From the NCBI GenBank assembly GCA_043741255.1, contig JAYUAP010000146.1, positions 1-24,000 on the forward strand: a stretch of DNA of 24,000 nucleotides. Direction: 5' to 3'. A program made the translations under genes and the position numbers. The stretch is from Candidatus Saccharimonadota bacterium. Lineage in GTDB: Bacteria > Patescibacteriota > Saccharimonadia > Saccharimonadales > 2-12-FULL-41-12. Of this stretch, positions 320 to 24,000 are shown piece after piece (the stretch's first letter is position 1; each line of letters begins with the position of its first letter). The notes under the pieces are model-generated. The model was not told the origin of the DNA, ran no database searches, and saw only the letters and a list, made by a program, of their open reading frames with translations.

Positions 320-383
320 GTAAAATAAATTTACTATTTATGTGTAAAATAATTTGCATATATGGTTTTTAGGCGTATATTTG
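320..383 (+). promoter_or_regulatory. Bacteroidota-type promoter (-33 TTTG, -7 TATATTTG) with two tandem GTAAAATAATTTGCA-like boxes
   Basis: GTAAAATAAATTTAC at 320-334 and GTAAAATAATTTGCA at 344-358 (containing TTTG 353-356). A 19-nt spacer follows, then TATATTTG at 376-383, 25 nt before the ATG at 409. The same architecture and the same 19-nt spacer occur at 11026-11088(-) and 22904-22966(-). Confidence 0.6.
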
Positions 384-408: not shown

Positions 409-693
409 ATGAAAATAGAACAAAACCTCATCGGCGTTACGGACGCCACGTTCGAATCGAACGAAAACACTTTTAGCGGATCTGAGACGATACAAAAACA
501 CGTCTTTTTCGTTAACGAAACCTCGATAGCTATGGCTAAAAAGAATTTCATCCTAAGATTCTTAAAGCGTTTACCACAGGAGAAACTCGAAGAGCTTGTA
601 AATCTGCAAATGGTAGATGTAGATCTGGAAGGTCAATACTCTGAGGGTTGCAGGCTTAGCGCCGAATTAACTATACGGATAAAGGGCTCCTAG
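409..693 (+). CDS. hypothetical protein (94 aa), the only credible plus-strand gene; moron-like
   Basis: ATG-initiated ORF with its own consensus promoter (320-383) and a terminator hairpin (723-747) 30 nt after the stop. No recognisable motif. Confidence 0.6.
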   Translation: MKIEQNLIGVTDATFESNENTFSGSETIQKHVFFVNETSIAMAKKNFILRFLKRLPQEKLEELVNLQMVDVDLEGQYSEGCRLSAELTIRIKGS

Positions 694-719: not shown

Positions 720-751
720 AAAAACCCGAGCTATATTAGTTCGGGTTTTTT
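720..751. terminator. bidirectional intrinsic terminator between convergent genes
   Basis: Stem AACCCGA 723-729 pairs with TCGGGTT 741-747 around an 11-nt loop. A T run (746-751) follows on the plus strand and an A run (720-724) precedes it, which gives a U run on the minus strand. The homing endonuclease stop codon (731-733) lies in the loop. Confidence 0.7.
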
Positions 752-1483
752 GTATTCATACGCAGTATTATTTTTACTAGCTCCTCGCATTTTACGCTTC
801 ATAGTTCCGTAGCAAAAGCCTTTTAAGTCGCAAAGGTATTTAAGGTTTTTAAACTCTTCCCCTGTCACCATATCTATTACGGTCTTTCCTGTTTTAGCGC
901 TTTCGAGTCTAGCTTTTAAACGAATTGCTTTTGCATCTTCCGTAGGCTTTACACCTAGTTTAGCTTTAGACATTTTCGCTTTTGTTTCAGCACTCCTCGG
1001 TGGTCGCGCAAAAGCTTTTTGGCGCATAAGTTCTATAGATTCAGTTTTGTGATTTCTACCTAAAAGAGTTTCACTTACTTTTGCTTTGTGAGAGCCAGAT
1101 AGACTCACTCCTGTTCGACTTAAATTGAAAAGTGTTAAATCTGGGCGACTACGCCCCGAATTGCTTTTACTTATTTTACGCTTAGTCTCTTCTGAAACTC
1201 TCTTATTAAGGCCGCCAGAGGATAGATTTAAACCGCGCTCGTTGTTGAAAGTTCCATAGAACTCTATCCAATACTCCTCGCGACTATTTAAACCCTCCCA
1301 ATCGCATTCCTCAATAACTTCGAAAACATGTGCCGAAAATCCATATTTGACTAAACTAGCGTGCAATTTCTGTTGTTTGTGACAATGGTTATTAACGTAC
1401 ATTTTGCGTCTTTTTTCTATATCGATACTTTGTCCGATATAGATTCGTCCTGTCGGACTCGTAATCTTATAAATTCCTATCAT
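731..1483 (-). CDS. GIY-YIG family homing endonuclease with NUMOD3-like DNA-binding repeats (free-standing)
   Basis: From the ATG at 1483 the protein reads MIGIYKITSPTGRIYIGQS (GIY...YIG), followed by EYWIE and a conserved N. Three NUMOD3-like repeats follow (SEETKRKISKSNSG, SGSHKAKVSETLLG, SAETKAKMSKAKLG). The track start at 1519 would read through the upstream -7 box and the terminator U run, so I use the start at 1483. Confidence 0.85.
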   Translation of the reverse strand: MIGIYKITSPTGRIYIGQSIDIEKRRKMYVNNHCHKQQKLHASLVKYGFSAHVFEVIEECDWEGLNSREEYWIEFYGTFNNERGLNLSSGGLNKRVSEETKRKISKSNSGRSRPDLTLFNLSRTGVSLSGSHKAKVSETLLGRNHKTESIELMRQKAFARPPRSAETKAKMSKAKLGVKPTEDAKAIRLKARLESAKTGKTVIDMVTGEEFKNLKYLCDLKGFCYGTMKRKMRGASKNNTAYEYKKPELI

Positions 1484-1487
1484 GCGC

Positions 1488-1495
1488 CAAATATA
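1488..1495 (-). promoter_or_regulatory. -7 box TATATTTG located 4 nt upstream of the homing endonuclease ATG
   Basis: The minus strand reads UUUUUGTATATTTGGCGCATG. This matches the Bacteroidota TAnnTTTG consensus. The same spacing is seen at 5632-5639 and 7167-7174. Confidence 0.45.
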
Positions 1496-1496
1496 C

Positions 1497-1538
1497 AAAA
1501 AAAAAATCCCTTTAATCAATTAAGACTAAAGGGATTTT
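1497..1538 (-). terminator. intrinsic terminator after the major capsid gene
   Basis: A 12-bp stem pairs AAAATCCCTTTA 1503-1514 with TAAAGGGATTTT 1527-1538 around a 12-nt loop. On the minus strand it is followed by a long U run (A run 1497-1506 on the plus strand). Confidence 0.8.
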
Positions 1539-8347: not shown

Positions 8348-8370
8348 TTCTGTTATTATTCTGTTCGAGA

Positions 8371-8399
8371 CAAAGATAATTAATTTTTATGTAAACAAA
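8371..8399 (-). promoter_or_regulatory. candidate promoter of terS (-7 TATCTTTG, -33 TTTG, 17-nt spacer)
   Basis: The minus strand reads cTTTGtttacataaaaattaatTATCTTTG, followed by 23 nt and then the ATG at 8347. The -33 box overlaps the first GTAAACAA iteron. Confidence 0.45.
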
Positions 8400-8740
8400 G
8401 ATAAACAATGATCGTTTACTCGTTAAGCCTTATATCCGTTGAGGTCAGATAGAAGTAAACAAAGTAAACAAAAAAGTCTCAGGATATATATAATACGTGT
8501 GTACGCATATTATATATACGTGTATGTACGCATTATCTTATATATTATTTTATTACTATATTTAATTAGTATTATTGTTTACATTGTTTACATCCTTGTT
8601 CCCGCCAATGGCTGCACGGGGTTCAAGCGTAAACAACCATTGTTTATTATTGTTTACCATTGTTTACTTTTCGGTTTTAAGCACAAAAAAGCGCCTTTTT
8701 CGAGGCGCTTCGCGTAAACAATGATTTTAGTATTGTTTAC
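8391..8740. repeat. noncoding boundary element R1: GTAAACA/TGTTTAC iteron array around an AT-rich core; homolog of 22968-23277
   Basis: Exact 7-mers start at 8391, 8455, 8464, 8629 and 8714 (GTAAACA) and lie within the TTGTTTAC copies starting at 8575, 8584, 8650, 8660 and 8733 (TGTTTAC). Degenerate copies start at 8401, 8413 and 8640. The core 8481-8574 is about 80% A+T. Four blocks are shared with R2 in the same order and spacing. Confidence 0.85.
8684..8710 (-). terminator. intrinsic terminator after the 138-aa ORF (end of the early/replication module)
   Basis: Stem AAGCGCC 8689-8695 pairs with GGCGCTT 8704-8710 around an 8-nt loop, with a U run on the minus strand (A run 8685-8690). Confidence 0.7.
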
Positions 8741-8742
8741 AT

Positions 8743-10208: not shown

Positions 10209-10547
10209 TTATAATTTTCTTAAGAAGTTGAGCATCTCAGGGAAGTTCTCCGGATCTAATTCTCTAATTCTGTTTGCCCCGAAGGTGTTAATTTTTGCTT
10301 TGATTTCTGCTCGATGGTTCTGCGCTTTATGACTTACGAGTTCTCTCATTTCGGAGAGCGCGTCGTTGAATTCTAATTTTTTACAAGGTTCAGACTCAAC
10401 TCTTTTACAAGGTTCAGACTCAACTTTTTTAAATTCTTTTCGGCGTTTAGCCTTTACAATAAAATCGTACATAATAGGCAATATGATTGTTAAGAATATA
10501 CCTAAAACCACGCCGATTGCGCCATTAATTAATTGCTCCGAGTTCAT
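10209..10547 (-). CDS. hypothetical membrane-anchored protein (112 aa) with an internal 8-aa duplication
   Basis: N-terminal TM helix (GAIGVVLGIFLTIILPIMY) followed by the duplicated motif VESEPCK(R/K). Confidence 0.65.
   Translation of the reverse strand: MNSEQLINGAIGVVLGIFLTIILPIMYDFIVKAKRRKEFKKVESEPCKRVESEPCKKLEFNDALSEMRELVSHKAQNHRAEIKAKINTFGANRIRELDPENFPEMLNFLRKL
10381..10428. repeat. 24-bp tandem duplication (23/24 identical) inside the 112-aa ORF
   Basis: TTTACAAGGTTCAGACTCAACTCT at 10381-10404 and TTTACAAGGTTCAGACTCAACTTT at 10405-10428. Confidence 0.9.
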
Positions 10548-11025: not shown

Positions 11026-11088
11026 CAAATATACAACCTTTTTCGAACTGTGCAAATTATTTTACTTAAAAAATGCAAATTATTTTAC
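11026..11088 (-). promoter_or_regulatory. Bacteroidota-type promoter with tandem GTAAAATAATTTGCA boxes
   Basis: On the minus strand GTAAAATAATTTGCA occurs twice (plus-strand 11074-11088 and 11051-11065). The -33 TTTG lies at 11053-11056, followed by a 19-nt spacer and TATATTTG at 11026-11033. The distal box overlaps the SNF2 stop codon. Confidence 0.65.
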
Positions 11089-12465
11089 TTTTTTAATCGA
11101 AAGCCCGTATTTCTTGATCTTAGCCTTAACCGCGGCCATTAAAACCTCTTGCGTATTTGCTTTACGTCCTAAAACCTCTTGCACCGTTTCGTCCTCTGTG
11201 CCTTGAGCGATTAAATGCCCTATGACTACTGGGTATTTACGCCCTTGACGGTGCAACCTCTTATTAAACTGTTGGTATAGCTCTAAAGACCAATTAAGGC
11301 TGAACCACAAGGCGCAGGTGTGCCCCTCTTGTAAATTAAGTCCGTGTGAGGCACTGGCGGGGTGTGCGAGCATAACTTGTATTTTGCCTGCATTCCAATC
11401 GCGTATATGCTGCTGAGTTTCGAGCTTCACGGGCTTATATTTCTTAAGTCTTATAAGTAGTCGCTCTAGCTCATGCTTATAGCTGTAGGCGATAAAAATA
11501 GGCTTGCCGTTAGCCGATTCGATAAACTCCTCTGCGGCATCGAGCTTACAATCGTGTATCCTGTGAACCTCTCTGTTTTCATCGTAGACCGCCCCGCCCG
11601 CAAACTGTAAGAGCTTATTGGATAGAGCCGCCGCATTCATCGCTGTTATTTCCGTATCGCCACTAAACATTTCGAGCACCTTTTCGCGTTCGAATGCCTT
11701 GTATCGTTTCTTAATATCGGGAGGCAATACGACATTTATAAAAGTGTCTATGCGCTCTGGAAGCTCCAAATAGTCCTCGGACTTAAGTGACATACATATA
11801 TCTTTTAGCTGTCCATGAATCCTGTCCTCGGACTCCTTAAGGATCTCGTAGCCGTAGCCATTATAACCTCTGCGGAAATAGTTATCTCGAAAAAAAGTAA
11901 TCGTCTTGCCGAGTCTCAGCCCCCTGTCTAAGAGAAAGATTTGGGGCCATAAGTCGATTAGCCCATTTGGCGCAGGCGTGCCTGTTAAAAGAACAACTCT
12001 GTGAAAGCAAGCCTGTACGCCTTTAAGTGCTTTGAACCTTACTGATGCGTGGTTCTTAAACGAACTGCTCTCATCTATCACAAGCATCTCGAATGGCAAT
12101 TTCCCGCCGCCAAATTGACCCACAAGCCAAGCGATATTATCTCGACTTATGATGTGTAGGCAGGCTTTTTCTTTTAACGCCGTTTTTCGTTGCTTCTCAT
12201 TACCTATTACCTTCGAGATTGTTAAGTTCTTAAGGTGTGACCATTTATCGATCTCATCCGACCAAACAACCTCCGCCACCCTTTTAGGCGCGATTATGAG
12301 CACAGAACTGATTTCGAAGTCCTCGAACATTAAACGGTTAATTGCTGTAAGTGTTGAGGTTGTCTTGCCCGTGCCCATTTCTGCAAATACGCCCGCAAAC
12401 ATATTGGCTATTATGAACTCAACTGTGTTTCGTTGATAATTGTGTAGGTTTGATTCGTTTAGCAT
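11080..12465 (-). CDS. SNF2-family DEAD/DEAH-box helicase
   Basis: Motif I AEMGTGKT, motif II VIDESSSFKN, motif III LLTGTP, and C-terminal helicase motifs (HPASASHGLNLQ, NKRLHRQGRK). Confidence 0.85.
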   Translation of the reverse strand: MLNESNLHNYQRNTVEFIIANMFAGVFAEMGTGKTTSTLTAINRLMFEDFEISSVLIIAPKRVAEVVWSDEIDKWSHLKNLTISKVIGNEKQRKTALKEKACLHIISRDNIAWLVGQFGGGKLPFEMLVIDESSSFKNHASVRFKALKGVQACFHRVVLLTGTPAPNGLIDLWPQIFLLDRGLRLGKTITFFRDNYFRRGYNGYGYEILKESEDRIHGQLKDICMSLKSEDYLELPERIDTFINVVLPPDIKKRYKAFEREKVLEMFSGDTEITAMNAAALSNKLLQFAGGAVYDENREVHRIHDCKLDAAEEFIESANGKPIFIAYSYKHELERLLIRLKKYKPVKLETQQHIRDWNAGKIQVMLAHPASASHGLNLQEGHTCALWFSLNWSLELYQQFNKRLHRQGRKYPVVIGHLIAQGTEDETVQEVLGRKANTQEVLMAAVKAKIKKYGLSIKKVK

Positions 12466-12468
12466 AAT

Positions 12469-13677
12469 TTAAAATAGATCTAAGTTGTTAACAGGTAAGT
12501 GTTTGAAAAACTCGCAAACAGCATCTACCGTCCAGCCGTTGCCGAGCATTTTATAGCGTTGTGAGTTCGATACGCCGAGAGTGTAATTATCAGGTAAGGT
12601 TTGCAATCGTTCGCACTCTATGGGCGTGAGTTTACGGATGTAACCCTCAATTAAAATGCCGTGTTTATCTTGCGCCGTCAAGGTGTAGAACTTACGCCCG
12701 TCGTTGAACCTCTGCCCGTTTTGCCGTTTGTCTACTCGATCGGGCGTTATGCAGCCGAATAAATATAAGCCGCGACTGGCCCGAGCTATTCCGCCTCTTT
12801 GTGCTGTGAGGGCCACCGCCTTATCGTGGATATAATAGACTCTATTACCCTGCGAATTACTTTTAAAGTGCCCGACTTTACCCCGTTCGACTTCTTTTTC
12901 CAAAATCTGTAACGTCTTATCGAATGGTACTATATATTGTTCTAAATCCTGGAAAATCTTCTGTCCTTCGCCTTTATTGGTCGTTAGGCAGTTGCATTTA
13001 TCTTTATGCACATTCTGCACTAACCCATTCATGCCTTTACCGCTCGGATTAATATTAAATTGGTGAGCCATTTGCCCTTGCTGTTTTTTAAAGTACTCCC
13101 TCTCTGTCGTTCGACCAATATTTGAAATTATGCAACGGCTTTTATCTCGGTCAACTAAACAGTACTCGTGCACAATATTTTTAAGTAGAATTCCTTTATC
13201 CTCTGGCGGCGCATAACCTGTAATATTTGTCCAGTATAACCGTTTGCGATTTTGGGCCGATACTAGCGATGAATTTAGTTCTATCGGCTCAACGCCTAAA
13301 TAGCTACTAATTACATCCTGATACTCTTTTTTCATCTTAACATTTTCCAAGAAGAAGAACTTCGGCTTGCAATCTTTTAATAATCGCACAAACTCGAAAA
13401 AAAGTTTAGAACGGGGGTCTTCGAAATTCAATTGCTTGCCTGCAAAACTGAAACCCTGACAAGGTGACCCGCCTATTAGTAAATCGATCGATTCTAAATC
13501 TTCGGCTTTTACTTTCGTAACGTCGCCAATCGGGATTGTATCAGGGTAATTGTTGAGAGCCACTTGTATTGCGTATTTATCAATCTCTGCGGCGTAATAG
13601 TTATTAATCTCAAAGCCGCATCGCTCTAAGGCGAATCGACCGCAAGACATTCCGTCGAATAGGCTTAAAACATTCAT
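12469..13677 (-). CDS. DNA (cytosine-5)-methyltransferase
   Basis: Motif I LSLFDGMSCG, motif IV GGSPCQGFSFAG, motif VI FLENVK, motif VIII QNRKR, and C-terminal YKMLGNGWTV. No adjacent restriction endonuclease gene. Confidence 0.9.
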   Translation of the reverse strand: MNVLSLFDGMSCGRFALERCGFEINNYYAAEIDKYAIQVALNNYPDTIPIGDVTKVKAEDLESIDLLIGGSPCQGFSFAGKQLNFEDPRSKLFFEFVRLLKDCKPKFFFLENVKMKKEYQDVISSYLGVEPIELNSSLVSAQNRKRLYWTNITGYAPPEDKGILLKNIVHEYCLVDRDKSRCIISNIGRTTEREYFKKQQGQMAHQFNINPSGKGMNGLVQNVHKDKCNCLTTNKGEGQKIFQDLEQYIVPFDKTLQILEKEVERGKVGHFKSNSQGNRVYYIHDKAVALTAQRGGIARASRGLYLFGCITPDRVDKRQNGQRFNDGRKFYTLTAQDKHGILIEGYIRKLTPIECERLQTLPDNYTLGVSNSQRYKMLGNGWTVDAVCEFFKHLPVNNLDLF

Positions 13678-20013: not shown

Positions 20014-20095
20014 TGGAAAAATTAGGATTCAAACCTAAATTTCTGGTATATTTTATTCCGCAGTTCGAGCGCTTTATCCGTTAAACCATTTTCCC
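20014..20095 (-). ncRNA. tRNA-like element 2 (82 nt; 7-bp acceptor stem with G3:U70 and A73, D and T arms, no canonical anticodon arm)
   Basis: The minus strand reads GGGAAAA UG GUUU AACGGAUA AAGC G CUCGAACUGCGGAAUAAAAUAUACCAGAAAU UUAGG UUUGAAU CCUAA UUUUUCC A. I tried every register of the 31-nt insert and found no 5-bp stem with a 7-nt loop. Confidence 0.5.
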
Positions 20096-20207: not shown

Positions 20208-20753
20208 CTATAAATCGAATTCCTCTTCGTCGAGTTCATCGAAGACATCCTCAACTCTAACATTGGCAACGCCTAGAGGTTCGCCGTCGCTTACTTTTTG
20301 GATAGCCTCCAAGCTGGCTGTAATCCCCTTAGAGTCTTCTCTCCAGTAATAGTAGAATTCAATAGCTACATTTGCTATGCATCCGCTGTATACCTCGTCC
20401 TCGTCTGTAATTAAATTACGTCTCCTATCGACTATTTTAGGTTTTGTGGTTTTGGAGACATTTATGTAAAACCTATTCTCATAAATTTCATCGTCTTTGT
20501 CCTCGTCCCCGTCGTTAAATGAGTTTTTGATCTCTTTTTTAGGACGCTTACCTGCATATTTTTCGGTAATCATTTTTTCTTCTACCTCCTTAATTGCAGC
20601 CTTAATTTTAGCTACGGAAGCTTTGTCCGACTTATCGATTAGAAGTAAACATTTATACTTCGGTTTTTCGTCAGGTCGTTTCGGATCTGTGTAAGGTTTG
20701 AAAACACTTACATAACTTAATAGTGCTCTTACTGTAACTCTGGTCTCTGCCAT
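20208..20753 (-). CDS. single-stranded DNA-binding protein, DUF2815-type (T7 gp2.5-like) with acidic C-terminal tail
   Basis: 181 aa. N-terminus RVTVRALLSYVSVFKP and acidic tail DELDEEEFDL. It is encoded directly after the DUF2800-type nuclease, as in many phage replication modules. Confidence 0.6.
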   Translation of the reverse strand: MAETRVTVRALLSYVSVFKPYTDPKRPDEKPKYKCLLLIDKSDKASVAKIKAAIKEVEEKMITEKYAGKRPKKEIKNSFNDGDEDKDDEIYENRFYINVSKTTKPKIVDRRRNLITDEDEVYSGCIANVAIEFYYYWREDSKGITASLEAIQKVSDGEPLGVANVRVEDVFDELDEEEFDL

Positions 20754-20832
20754 AATAATTTTCTTTTTAAATTAGTGAATAGTTATCCTCGCCGATAAAA
20801 ATCAGCGGATTCAAATGTATTAAATTCTTTGA

Positions 20833-22053
20833 TTAGTTGAGGTCGAAATCGCCGCCCTCTTCGATAATTTCAGCGAAGTCCTTCTCTAATTGACCTGTGC
20901 CGTAAACGTCTCTTTTGTCATTCTCATCTACTAAAGTTGGTGCGCCTTGCGGCTTAACGATTAAATGCCCTAGCAGCTTTTCGAAATTAGCTTTTTTGAG
21001 TAATTTTTCTAAATCCCCCAGTCCTTTCAGTTTGAAGTTAACAAATTCCGCAGGTTCATATAGATTTTCCTCTAAAATCTCAATGGCTTTAAACTCGTCT
21101 GTCCATTGTCGATTAGATCTACCCTCTACAAGCTTGTAGCCCTGCCAAACTTTACCGTTTAGCGCCTCTTTTAAAACTGTCGCCTTTACGTCTTCAAGCC
21201 ACTTCTTAATGAAATCTGCATTATTGTAAATGCTTAAAAGCTCTTCGTCGTTAATTAGTCCAGGATCTGCAATCTCTTCGAAATCTCGCTTTACTATTTC
21301 CATCCCTAGATCGAATAAAGCTCTGCATTTCGCTCTAGCTTTACAGAATTGGCACCAATCGCCTGCTTTTTGTTTGCCATTACCTGTGAAAGCCTCTACT
21401 GCTTTAAGCTTTAATACGTCCTCCCCCCAAGCTCTAAGCTCTTTGGCTGAAATTTCCCAACTTGAGATGTTATCGAGTCTCGGTTGGACAATAGTTAAAG
21501 TCACTTTTGCAAATGTCGTTGTGCGTTCTGCGACCTTCATCGCTCCGCGACCGTAAGTCATGAGCTGCGTATTTTCAGTAGCGTAAACTGGCTTACCTTT
21601 GCCAAATTTAAGGTCTATGACCTCAATACCCCTATTGCAAACAATTATTGCGTCAGAGGTACCAAAACCGTCTTCGATCCATTCCGTGAGATCTAAGCGT
21701 TCCTCAATTAAAAGCTTTGCGTGAGGGTCAACTCTTTTAGCCTCTGCGAATTGTTGCTTAACGTAATTGACGTAAGCCATAATAGGCTCATCCATTTCTG
21801 AATTATAAAGCTCATTCGATTTCAAAGCGGTTAAATGCTTTTTATAATCTGCCATCGAGATAAGCTTCAAATCTACTCTAAGCATGATCTCGGCGAGTTC
21901 ATGCGCCAATGTGCCCTCTTCGGCGTAAACGCTTGTCTCGTTTTCGAAATTCTCTTCGAGTCTAGGCGATGCGGGACAATTGATCCAACGGTCTGAGCCA
22001 GAGGCGGAGAGAAGCGCGTGTGCCCTCTCCGCATGATTTACCTCAGCTTTCAA
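20833..22053 (-). CDS. PD-(D/E)XK nuclease, DUF2800 / Cas4-like
   Basis: N-terminal LSASGSDRWINCPAS, a D...E.K-type core (SDAIIVCNRGIEVIDLKFGKG), and a C-terminal Cys cluster CQFCKARAKC. The apparent start is TTG at 22053. Confidence 0.7.
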   Translation of the reverse strand: MKAEVNHAERAHALLSASGSDRWINCPASPRLEENFENETSVYAEEGTLAHELAEIMLRVDLKLISMADYKKHLTALKSNELYNSEMDEPIMAYVNYVKQQFAEAKRVDPHAKLLIEERLDLTEWIEDGFGTSDAIIVCNRGIEVIDLKFGKGKPVYATENTQLMTYGRGAMKVAERTTTFAKVTLTIVQPRLDNISSWEISAKELRAWGEDVLKLKAVEAFTGNGKQKAGDWCQFCKARAKCRALFDLGMEIVKRDFEEIADPGLINDEELLSIYNNADFIKKWLEDVKATVLKEALNGKVWQGYKLVEGRSNRQWTDEFKAIEILEENLYEPAEFVNFKLKGLGDLEKLLKKANFEKLLGHLIVKPQGAPTLVDENDKRDVYGTGQLEKDFAEIIEEGGDFDLN

Positions 22054-22055
22054 GG

Positions 22056-22469
22056 CTACTTTAATTTTGCTAAGAAATCGTAGTACTCTTGGAAGTGCTC
22101 AGGATCTAAGGTGCTGATGCCTTTTGCCCCTAGTTTTTTAAGTTTATCGATAATTGCATCACGGTGAGCAGTTACCTTTTTAGCCTGCATCAATTTGATG
22201 TCCTCAGCATCGACGCCTTCTTGCTCATCGGTCCCAGGATCTTCGGCATCCTCCCCTAATTCCATTTCGTACTCAGGCTCTTCTTCTTTTGGCTTAGCTC
22301 TAGAAGATCTCTTAGCTGGGGCTTTAACCGTTTCGGTTTTTACCTCTTCGGGTTCTATGACTTCGATATTTTTTACCTTTTTGTCGTCTTGGGCTAACTC
22401 CCCTAAGAATTTTTGAACTGCTCCAACGTTTGAAGCATCTACAGTAATCTCAATTTTAACTACACTCAT
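22056..22469 (-). CDS. hypothetical acidic protein (137 aa)
   Basis: The ATG overlaps the upstream TGA (ATGA). The central region is rich in Glu, Asp, Lys and Pro. Confidence 0.65.
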   Translation of the reverse strand: MSVVKIEITVDASNVGAVQKFLGELAQDDKKVKNIEVIEPEEVKTETVKAPAKRSSRAKPKEEEPEYEMELGEDAEDPGTDEQEGVDAEDIKLMQAKKVTAHRDAIIDKLKKLGAKGISTLDPEHFQEYYDFLAKLK

Positions 22470-22882
22470 TTTTGTCTATATTTAATTATTAAATCGGTTA
22501 AATCTGCTAAGTACTCCGTAAGCATTATGCCTTCTGGGTGTGACATCTTTTCAAAAAAGAGCATATTATCTTTTGATATTCGAGTCGTCATATCTGCTGT
22601 ATTAAGCTCAGCGAAGTAGTCATAGATCCTAAAATACAAAATCCCTTTTTGCCCCGCGGGGGCAGACATACTCCACTCGACATCTTCGAATAAAAGCCCT
22701 ATCGGTACGTTTAGCACTTCTGACAATTTGGCTATTTGCCAGGAGTTTAAAAATCCTTCGCCTTTTATTATTCGGGTAACGGCTCTATTGCCATGATTGT
22801 GTTCTGGGAAAAGATGCGAAGCGATAAACGATGTTTCTACGTTTGCCACTTTCATAATATGTCCAAGGTCTATTGTCTGCAT
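22466..22882 (-). CDS. XRE/Cro-like helix-turn-helix protein, first gene of the early operon
   Basis: From the ATG at 22882 (MQTIDLGHIMKV...). The segment RIIKGEGFLNSWQIAKLSEVLNVPIGLLFE resembles the recognition half of an HTH_3 domain. The track TTG start at 22906 overlaps the -7 box. Confidence 0.55.
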   Translation of the reverse strand: MQTIDLGHIMKVANVETSFIASHLFPEHNHGNRAVTRIIKGEGFLNSWQIAKLSEVLNVPIGLLFEDVEWSMSAPAGQKGILYFRIYDYFAELNTADMTTRISKDNMLFFEKMSHPEGIMLTEYLADLTDLIIKYRQK

Positions 22883-22903
22883 ATCTTTTGTTTTTATCTG
22901 TGA

Positions 22904-22966
22904 CAAATCTACAACTATTTTTCAATTGCGCAAATCATTTTACGTAAAAAATTAAATTATTTTTAC
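22904..22966 (-). promoter_or_regulatory. Bacteroidota-type promoter with tandem upstream boxes (early operon)
   Basis: On the minus strand: GTAAAAATAATTTAA (22952-22966) and GTAAAATGATTTGCG (22929-22943, with TTTG at 22931-22934). A 19-nt spacer follows, then TAGATTTG at 22904-22911. It aligns almost base for base with the promoter at 11026-11088. Confidence 0.65.
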
Positions 22967-22967
22967 A

Positions 22968-23277
22968 GTAAACAATGCATAATTATATAAGGGGCTGATT
23001 TTAAAGTACTTAAGATTAAAAGTAAACAAAGTAAACAATAAACAAAGATTCGACAAACTATATAAAGGTCTGTATGTGTAATATATAAATACTATGTAGG
23101 TATTATATTATATATTATTATATTTATAAAGTTAGATAGTATAATAGTATATGTTGTTTACATTTTAGCTGCCGCCAACGGTGGTATGGGCGGCAGAGAT
23201 ATACGATACTGGAATACTTTGTATATCTCGGTTTACTTTTCGATATTAGGCATAAAAAAAAACGACCTTACGGCCGT
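22968..23277. repeat. noncoding boundary element R2: second copy of the iteron / AT-core / GC-hairpin / terminator arrangement
   Basis: GTAAACA starts at 22968, 23022 and 23031 (plus a degenerate copy at 23039). TGTTTAC lies within the TTGTTTAC at 23154-23161 (plus a degenerate copy at 23230). Blocks shared with R1: a 19-mer (23020-23038), a 10-mer (23154-23163), GCCAAYGG (23174-23181) and a 12-mer (23231-23242). Confidence 0.85.
23253..23277 (-). terminator. intrinsic terminator after the lysis gene region
   Basis: The minus strand reads ACGGCC GUAA GGUCGU followed by a U9 run. The stem spans 23262-23277 and the A run on the plus strand is 23254-23262. Confidence 0.75.
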
Positions 23278-23419
23278 TTATGATTTCTTAATCTCGTCGA
23301 ATATCTCGTCGACCCTTCCGACGTTGTCAGTCCCTTTTACGCCTTTTTGGTTATTAATTACCATTTGGAGAGCAATAACTCCTATTGTTTTTAGGATCCT
23401 CCCAAATAGGCTTCTCGGT

Positions 23420-24000
23420 TTAAGATCTGTTTTTATCTGTTGCAACATATTCTTTTTTGTATTTAATTAGCAATGCCTCTCTTTTATTGTAGCCGACTAA
23501 GCCCCCATTAACTTTAATGCAACTGGCTTTAAAATCACCCCTATCGGCAATGGCGTTTAGCCCTTTGGCTTTCCAAAACCACCCCGCTGAATCTAAAGCG
23601 TATTTAAGTTGTTGCAGTTTATCCGGGTCGCAGGGTTCCCCTATCGATTTGAAATAAGCCTCTTGATTAGCTCTACCAGTAAGTTGTATGGCTCCTGCCC
23701 CTCGGTGTTTCCATCCGTCCCCAGGTACAATATTACCTAAATTCTTTTTACCCCAGACGCCGCCGTATACAGTATTGGCGATAGCCATTTGGTTCGCGGC
23801 GTGCTCGGCTGTACGACCGTACACTATGCAAGCCTGTTCAGCTATTCGATCTCTAGAGAATAGCGCTAGTAGAGCCTCGGCCTTGTAGTTTAAATTCTCT
23901 ACAAATTTAGTAAAACCTAATGACTCGTGTTCGGCGTGAGCCATAAAATAGGCTCTCCTTAAAGGAGTATTAATATCATATCGTTTGAAAACTATATCTA
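23420..24000 (-). CDS. endolysin, glycoside hydrolase family 19 (chitinase-like lysozyme); 5' end beyond the window
   Basis: AHAEHESLGF (catalytic Glu region), GNIVPGDGWKHRGAGAIQLTGRANQ and GWFW. The frame stays open upstream of the track ATG (23944) to base 24000 (...DIVFKRYDINTPLRRAYFMAHAEHES), so the true start probably lies outside the window. Confidence 0.8.
   Translation of the reverse strand, partial: DIVFKRYDINTPLRRAYFMAHAEHESLGFTKFVENLNYKAEALLALFSRDRIAEQACIVYGRTAEHAANQMAIANTVYGGVWGKKNLGNIVPGDGWKHRGAGAIQLTGRANQEAYFKSIGEPCDPDKLQQLKYALDSAGWFWKAKGLNAIADRGDFKASCIKVNGGLVGYNKREALLIKYKKEYVATDKNRS

Follow-up and report, generated by a model that had tools for sequence, protein, structure and literature searches.

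In staphylococcal pathogenicity islands (SaPIs) the replication origin consists of 6-12 short iterons and a central AT-rich region, with at least two oppositely oriented iterons on each side (PMC9371898). The SaPI Rep protein is a self-loading superfamily 3 (SF3) initiator-helicase that reads the iterons through a C-terminal winged helix, and in SaPI5 it is fused to a primase (PMC9371898). The Bacillus phage SPP1 has two origins, oriL and oriR, ~13 kb apart, each made up of repeats and an AT-rich unwinding element (PMC6316719). The SPP1 initiator bound at oriR has been proposed to stall the replication fork, with an exonuclease, an annealing protein and an SSB, which binds single-stranded DNA, then leading to concatemer synthesis (PMC6316719). 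Here we describe two related elements, R1 (8348-8742) and R2 (22883-23279), which lie 14.6 kb apart in a 24,000-nt stretch of phage DNA (contig JAYUAP010000146.1, assembly GCA_043741255.1; the whole of this stretch is called the window below). We propose, with a probability of roughly 0.7, that the phage has an iteron-type replication origin in two paralogous copies, R1 and R2, or that these are at a minimum origin-like sites to which the initiator would bind.

In phage lambda, iteron plasmids, simian virus 40 (SV40), papillomavirus and oriS of herpes simplex virus (HSV), initiator sites lie beside or flank an AT-rich unwinding element, with transcription nearby. The origins of lambda, the plasmids and the viruses with SF3 helicases differ from R1 and R2 in that they use other initiator families and are single or otherwise arranged, and there is no sequence relationship. 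In satellite phage P4, the C-terminal DNA-binding domain of the alpha primase-helicase reads octamer iterons at two sites several kilobases apart, ori and crr. P4 differs in that ori and crr are jointly required for one initiation event, crr is a tandem duplication, and the distance is ~4.5 kb.

Two copies of one element

By Smith-Waterman alignment R1 and R2 are collinear over ~250 nt (8446-8690 against 23012-23259), with ~62% identity and a longest identical run of 19 nt. The local alignment score is 116, whereas 300 dinucleotide-preserving shuffles score 24.9±3.4 (maximum 39) and the reverse-complement control scores 39. The 8-mer TTGTTTAC/GTAAACAA occurs exactly 15 times in the window, where 1.06 occurrences are expected, and 14 of the 15 fall inside R1 or R2. 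Because of this gap in score and the excess of the 8-mer, the likeness survives correction for AT-richness, and the proposal made in an initial annotation of this DNA, that R1 and R2 are paralogous and collinear, is upheld. The four shared blocks on which that proposal was built were all recovered at the coordinates given for them: AAGTAAACAAAGTAAACAA (8453-8471 and 23020-23038, 19/19), TTGTTTACAT (8584-8593 and 23154-23163), GCCAAYGG (8604-8611 and 23174-23181) and GTTTACTTTTCG (8662-8673 and 23231-23242), with block-to-block spacings of 131/134, 20/20 and 58/57 nt.

Read in the direction of transcription, the elements begin at their distal end with a terminator, followed by distal GTAAACA boxes (two or three direct and one inverted) and a GC-rich spacer of ~35 nt carrying a semi-conserved CCRTTGG. 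Inner direct boxes with a 9-bp period, an AT-rich core of ~105 bp and inner inverted boxes come next, and the promoter end is formed by a spacer of ~50 nt, one or two further boxes and the promoter of the next operon. The boxes number 13 in R1, counting an extra inverted pair beyond the terminator, and 5-6 in R2, in which the distal group has decayed.

The central unit of R1 consists of two iterons, a core of 105-107 bp (79% AT) and two inverted iterons. The two inner iterons on the promoter side (8455-8471, plus strand) are inverted with respect to the two on the terminator side (8575-8591, minus strand, 9-bp period), 105-107 bp away, and the AT-rich core between them (8472-8574) twice contains the alternating purine-pyrimidine tract ACGTGTGTACGCAT. 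Beyond this unit lie the GC-rich spacer with GCCAATGG (8592-8628), the distal iteron cluster (8629-8667, with boxes at 8629-8636 on the plus strand and at 8640-8647, 8650-8657 and 8660-8667 on the minus strand) and the extra inverted pair, found by box search between the stop codon of the upstream gene and the terminator (8714-8740). The outer cluster on the promoter side (8391-8419) comprises GTAAACAA, ATAAACAA and an inverted GTAAACGA.

In R2 the central unit consists of three iterons, a 108-bp core and one inverted iteron. The three inner iterons on the promoter side (23022-23045, plus strand) read GTAAACAA, GTAAACAA and ATAAACAA with a 9-bp period; the core (23046-23153) is a putative DNA unwinding element; and the inner iteron on the terminator side (23154-23161, minus strand) reads TTGTTTAC on the plus strand. 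A GC-rich spacer with GCCAACGG and an 8-bp hairpin (23162-23205; -10.1 kcal/mol, z -2.97) leads to a degenerate distal iteron, GTAAACC (23231-23238, minus strand), which aligns with the R1 boxes at 8650-8667 and is a remnant of the distal cluster kept in R1 and in relatives. The terminator side of the R2 core has one exact iteron and one degenerate box 70 nt away, whereas R1 has two iterons on one side of its core and two inverted ones on the other. Box search also placed an outlying iteron upstream of the early promoter (22968-22975, plus strand).

The least stable 100-bp duplex of the 24 kb is in the R2 core (23055-23155; z 4.5, 84% AT), and the second least stable is in the R1 core (8484-8584; z 3.65). 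The cores had been described as alike in length but different in sequence; the lengths are indeed similar, but the cores align with ~65% identity, so they are more than length-matched. A GC hairpin around the third block had also been counted among the shared features. We reject it as such, as it reaches significance in R2 alone (R1 z -0.05) and the relatives have not kept it.

The initial annotation could assign the elements to no described family, whereas we find that their core matches the iteron-type origin design of self-loading initiator-helicases (PMC9371898). As in the SaPI origin, the iterons of both R1 and R2 are clustered in a non-coding region and stand in opposed orientation around an AT-rich centre, and there is a candidate cognate initiator, the primase-helicase of the window being a homologue in sequence and fold of SaPI1 Rep1 (7PDS). 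Unlike here, the SaPI origin is single and lies immediately downstream of rep, whereas the window has two copies ~6 kb from the gene, at operon junctions. This adjacency is absent from the window, yet it is present in four distant relatives (L097, L068, L084 and L075; see below). The iteron is also longer, 7-8 bp (GTAAACAA) compared to 5-6 bp in SaPIs, and the core of ~105 bp, the added distal iteron clusters and the GC-rich spacer are further differences.

Copy number and position in related phages

Relatives of the window were gathered from IMG/VR by searches with the exact 19-mer and by protein-anchored searches, and a profile hidden Markov model (HMM) was built from 13 elements. With this profile, exactly two full-length copies were found in 9/9 loci covering both positions (the window, L108, L109, L110, L114, L118, L121, L125 and L131). 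The positions are fixed: one copy separates the lysis genes from the early operon, at ~1 kb upstream of the exonuclease gene, and the other comes just before the small terminase gene terS. The relatives therefore have two copies with the blocks kept, contrary to the possibility, allowed for in the initial annotation, that homologous phages might carry a single copy with no conserved blocks. R1-type copies in relatives often have an extra half-copy at the place of the 8714-8740 pair of the window, and R2-type copies usually have at least two iterons on each side.

Total copy number was judged from two complete genomes, those of Croceibacter phage P2559Y and Elizabethkingia phage TCUEAP1. P2559Y, the nearest cultured relative of the window (DNA polymerase 52% and primase-helicase 58.5% identical), has only two elements, which lie at 23611-23881 and 42873-43153/1-110. 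TCUEAP1, with a primase-helicase ~50% identical, has the same two-position design with a different box, TGTCTCA(A), in both copies; in each, a core of ~105 bp stands between two direct boxes and two inverted ones. The related phages have at least six different iterons between them. Copies from the same genome are 0.62 identical (core 0.65, up to 0.83) compared to 0.57-0.59 for orthologues, and because same-genome copies are slightly more alike than orthologous ones, the sequences point to some concerted evolution or co-adaptation.

More distant relatives, in which the PriRep-type primase-helicase is 38-42% identical, have an element of iterons and an AT core immediately after the primase-helicase stop codon, with lineage-specific iterons: TGGAAACAG in L097 (element at 12386-12655), AAAGTACC in L068 (10299-10560), GGAACAAC in L084 (13133-13400) and GTTGACA in L075 (20690-20900). 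In L097 and L075 the AT core is matched weakly but specifically by the profile of the window's clade (E 0.002 and 0.006, respectively). The gene past the element in the distant relatives encodes a conserved small protein. In the window, P2559Y and TCUEAP1 a gene occupies the position after the primase-helicase without a gap, and in the latter two it is annotated as a nuclease. From these comparisons the origin appears to have moved from beside the initiator gene to two operon junctions, and to have doubled.

Position and conservation also bear on whether R1 could be a pac site for the small terminase, R2 then being a secondary copy or one in decay. In favour of this explanation, the gene directly downstream of R1 is terS (8347-7907), and R1 has 13 boxes compared to the 5-6 of R2. 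However, R2-type copies are conserved, full-length and far from the terminase genes in all relatives, the element of the distant relatives adjoins the primase-helicase gene rather than terS, and, from what is generally known of pac phages, another pac site at a distance of 14.6 kb would upset the headful packaging series. We consider a packaging site extremely unlikely.

The elements could in principle serve as substrates for recombination, belong to a mobile repeat, or encode a structured RNA such as a leader or small RNA. The copies are direct repeats of ~250 nt, and the likeness within genomes hints at occasional gene conversion. Against recombination stand the identity of only ~62%, with no identical run longer than 19 nt, and the window annotation, in which no recombinase gene was seen; a mobile repeat is at odds with positions that stay fixed over deep divergence. 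We reject a structured RNA, since RNAalifold found 0 conserved pairs in a consensus of 17 element copies and Rfam searches, at the gathering threshold and at E<=1, returned nothing meaningful and no family near threshold. ARAGORN placed no tRNA in or near R1 or R2. Taken as a group, these explanations have hardly any probability in our estimate.

The AT core is polar, with a promoter-proximal alternating purine-pyrimidine tract (ACGCGTA, CACGTAT or TACGCGCGCGTAAGG) that is often followed by TATAGG. The tract is found at 8484-8560 in the window, 12590-12640 in L097, 10370-10420 in L068 and 15540-15580 in L125, and so is kept across lineages with differing iterons, although it is weak in R2 of the window and TCUEAP1 lacks it. 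Priming or helicase entry might take place at this tract. Weak Rfam matches to mir-297/466 merely reflect this tract.

A search of the literature for origins or iterons in phages of Flavobacteriia, or in the phage group of the window, found nothing relevant; a precedent for a pair is that of SPP1. Both have two similarly organised origins (in the window, putative ones) at comparable distances, ~13 kb in SPP1 and 14.6 kb here. SPP1 oriR is likewise intergenic, in the late region with transcription signals on either side, and exonuclease and annealing/SSB functions are encoded in both. The systems differ in their proteins, as initiation in SPP1 depends on a separate origin-binding protein, the initiator gp38, whose partners are the loader gp39 and the DnaB-type helicase gp40, whereas PHROG and Pfam annotation gave no DnaB-type helicase or loader among the replication-module genes of the window. 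SPP1 oriL also lies inside gene 38, the SPP1 repeats are direct, and no homology was found between the elements or between the initiators.

The primase-helicase as candidate initiator

The primase-helicase of the window (17074-14666, minus strand, 802 aa) is of PriRep type, with a VapE-like SF3 helicase domain by Pfam and PHROG annotation. Residues 369-793 match SaPI1 Rep1 (PDB 7PDS) with an E value of 6.7e-73, and the match runs through the C-terminal domain of Rep1. An AlphaFold model (mean predicted local distance difference test score, pLDDT, 71) has 7PDS as its top Foldseek match (E 2e-27), followed by other fusions of an archaeo-eukaryotic primase (AEP) with an SF3 helicase. At residues 744-800 the model contains a strand-helix-helix-strand-strand unit (pLDDT ~77-89), so that the predicted topology of the C-terminus is winged-helix-like.

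Co-variation between iteron and protein was measured in 12 homologues as the identity of the last 60 residues divided by that of the whole protein. The ratio is 1.02-1.25 in all phages with the GTAAACA box (5/5), in which the C-terminus is conserved at least as well as the remainder of the protein, and 0.58-0.81 in all phages with other iterons (7/7), in which it is less conserved. The segment MSRYxTR(D/E)INDIMK shows no variation within the first group but varies in the second, and two phages, L049 and L056, resemble each other both in this helix and in their iterons. In TCUEAP1 the iteron has switched to TGTCTCA in both copies together. These are indirect indications, from sequence comparison in 12/12 cases, that the identity of the iteron tracks the C-terminal domain of the primase-helicase. 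L037, which has 0 TTGTTTAC matches, was considered as a further phage with a different iteron and rejected, as it keeps the GTAAACA core and differs in the eighth base; it therefore provides no test of co-variation.

This pattern has to be weighed against the possibility that the boxes are sites for a recruited host protein, either a nucleoid-associated protein or a transcription factor. Such an explanation would fit with a GTAAACA box common to many related phages, and with the fact that TCUEAP1, whose box is different, infects a different host family. Since the boxes co-vary with a phage protein, however, sites for a host factor are unlikely; the number of iterons among related phages, at least six, and an architecture equal to that of a self-loading helicase origin also speak against them. 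We give this explanation a very low probability.

Transcription signals at the flanks

Both elements have an intrinsic terminator, as initially annotated, and in both it is to be placed on the minus (coding) strand. The R2 terminator (23260-23279) is an 8-bp stem followed by a T-run and ends the late/lysis operon; the R1 terminator (8688-8711), found by terminator scan, ends the early/replication operon. The distance of about 30 nt given for them also requires correction, as they start 15-18 nt from the fourth block.

A scan for sigma-70 promoters gave fewer matches than shuffled sequence and was uninformative, therefore the Bacteroidetes consensus (-33 TTTG, -7 TAnnTTTG) was taken instead. 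The pattern TTTG-N17-19-TAnnTTTG has 6 matches where 0.76 are expected. The early promoter at R2 (22904-22934, minus strand; TTTG-N19-TAGATTTG) is conserved in relatives. The late (packaging) promoter at R1 (8371-8399, minus strand) has TATCTTTG at -7, and its -33 TTTG lies inside the iteron at 8391-8398. A third promoter (11026-11056, minus strand; TTTGCACAGTTCGAAAAAGGTTGTATATTTG) is near-identical to the early promoter at R2 but has no iterons or AT core nearby, and is probably an internal (middle) promoter for a cluster of small genes. The mechanical open reading frame (ORF) start of the first early gene, TTG at 22906, falls inside the -7 promoter box; the true start is probably ATG at 22882, giving a protein of 138 aa.

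R1 and R2 are each flanked by a minus-strand terminator on one side and by the outgoing operon's promoter on the other, and in this the initial annotation was right to see a terminator for the incoming operon combined with a promoter for the outgoing one. This arrangement describes the flanks, outside the shared core. It fails as an explanation of what the two elements share, because neither promoter falls within the shared 250 nt and the promoter of R1 is not the same as that of R2.

The same evidence bears on the view, taken in that annotation, that the GTAAACA boxes are operators at the operon junctions for a phage regulator, an early repressor or late activator. The position of each element between a terminator and a Bacteroidetes-type promoter would suit an operator, as would the overlap of the R1 -33 TTTG with an iteron, and the early region encodes several small proteins without assigned function. 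However, the near-identical early-type promoter at 11056-11026 has no boxes, an operator would have no need of a conserved 105-bp AT core with flanking inverted repeat pairs, and in the distant relatives the element lies inside an operon, directly after the primase-helicase gene. Sequence searches of Pfam, PHROGs and the PDB found no DNA-binding candidate among the small early proteins, and no helix-turn-helix or other regulator domain in the small proteins of the window. We therefore consider operators to be an unlikely explanation of the shared element. A secondary regulatory role is conceivable, because the elements are located at operon boundaries and the late -33 lies inside an R1 iteron.

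A model for paired origins

The reading of R1 and R2 as replication origins draws support from several directions. The core architecture of R1 matches the published SaPI origin, and the R1 and R2 cores are the two least stable 100-bp segments of the 24 kb; the primase-helicase is homologous to SaPI1 Rep1, and the iterons co-vary with its C-terminal domain; distant relatives have an element of iterons and AT core directly after the primase-helicase gene; and two full copies are held at the same two positions, for which the dual origins of SPP1 are a precedent.

In the model that we propose, the primase-helicase, combining an AEP primase and an SF3 helicase, would bind the GTAAACA(A) iterons through its C-terminal winged helix, and initiator hexamers would assemble on both sides of the AT-rich core. 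The core would then melt, and the primase-helicase would load itself and prime synthesis, as in SaPI Rep proteins. Each origin would occupy a gap free of transcription, where one operon has ended at its terminator and the promoter of the following one has yet to be reached, a placement that would keep RNA polymerase from running through the initiator complex, and the departing polymerase may leave negative supercoiling behind it, at the origin. Two roles for the second copy can be envisaged. Both origins may fire or, as proposed for SPP1 oriR, the copy with bound initiator may stall forks and trigger concatemer synthesis. Such a switch would use the adjacent exonuclease and Gp2.5-like annealing/SSB protein (20208-22053, near R2).

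A bolder proposal is that R1 and R2 are an obligate pair, forming a device that times replication and transcription, rather than two independent origins. In one version, one copy would fire and the initiator at the other would arrest the fork and so time the switch to concatemers. In another, hexamers on R1 and R2 would bridge the copies (handcuffing) and loop out the 14.6-kb replication module, which would couple replication to the switch from early to late transcription, for example via the R1 iteron that overlaps the late -33. A timing device would account for the fixed positions across deep divergence and for the partial co-evolution within genomes, although we regard it as a rather doubtful extension of the origin model.

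Several points weigh against R1 and R2 being origins. The terminator side of R2 has one clear iteron, so the rule of two on each side is not fully followed. Both elements are ~5.9 kb from the primase-helicase gene, one on either side of it, and the stop codon of that gene (14666) is directly followed by an ORF. The elements coincide exactly with operon boundaries, and an R1 iteron overlaps the late -33. The co-variation of iterons and C-terminal domain is partly confounded with phylogenetic distance, and any of the several small early proteins without an assignable function could be the real binder of the boxes. Bacteroides phage BF486P2, whose primase-helicase is 53% identical, has no clear iteron cluster in the 34.5 kb examined. 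Finally, the proposed binding, melting and firing are deduced from sequence comparison throughout this phage group.

BF486P2 (L134) has no element of the GTAAACA type. It does have a 1.66-kb non-coding stretch between divergent gene blocks (29233-30894), with the repeated words GCATTAA and ATGTCAA, in which its origin may lie.

Gene content of the window

The long ORFs of the window are all on the minus strand. In transcription order the genes begin with an endolysin (23944-23420) and a 56-aa ORF, after which comes R2. The early/replication module between R2 and R1, annotated with PHROG and Pfam, contains the exonuclease (22053-20833, minus strand), the Gp2.5-like SSB/annealing protein (20753-20208, minus strand), a family A DNA polymerase (19834-17774, minus strand) and the primase-helicase, and ends with genes for a methyltransferase and an SNF2 helicase, together with small ORFs. 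R1 is followed by the small terminase gene terS (minus strand) and, past it, by the large terminase, portal and head proteins. This gene order agrees with the initial placing of R1 and R2 as brackets around the early/replication module, with R2 at the late-to-early and R1 at the early-to-late boundary. The window is from a siphovirus of a Bacteroidota host, given its Bacteroidetes-consensus promoters and its nearest cultured relative, P2559Y. Megablast of the whole window against GenBank phages gave 0 matches.

Some further features were observed. The SSB and polymerase genes are separated by a gap with a tRNA-like sequence (20014-20095, minus strand; Rfam tRNA 40.5 bits, E 1.5e-5), which was not called by ARAGORN. 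The ORF at 731-1519 (minus strand), just past the major capsid gene, may encode a homing endonuclease and be an insertion into the structural module; its weak GIY-YIG and faint NUMOD3 Pfam marks come from a matching Logan contig (L137, 8926-9678). Two small proteins (22056-22469 and 10209-10547, both minus strand) match phrog_5053 and phrog_408, of unknown function, and appear to be paralogous, one being encoded in the early operon and the other downstream of the internal promoter. The sole plausible plus-strand gene of the window (409-693, 94 aa) has its own Bacteroidetes-type promoter (353-383, plus strand), and the opposite-strand call is also made in the matching Logan contig.

Significance

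An iteron origin for a self-loading SF3 initiator-helicase is a known design. What would be new, judging from the sequence comparisons, is a paralogous pair of such origins remote from the initiator gene, one copy being fixed at each of the two operon junctions and both persisting through changes of iteron sequence. If this is correct, replication origins would be located for a large, mostly metagenomic group of Bacteroidota siphoviruses without a described origin, which includes the cultured phages P2559Y and TCUEAP1. Practical uses could then include annotation, phage-dependent plasmid tools in Bacteroidota and resistance strategies based on origin decoys. The family would also provide naturally occurring pairs of iteron and matching winged helix, with at least six specificities, for studies of how initiators read DNA.

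For the biology of these phages, the finding would mean that the origin design of the self-loading SaPI helicases extends to true phages, and that an evolutionary shift took place from one origin beside the initiator gene to two at operon junctions. The second copy would be a testable parallel to the SPP1 model, in which replication switches from circle-to-circle to concatemer synthesis.

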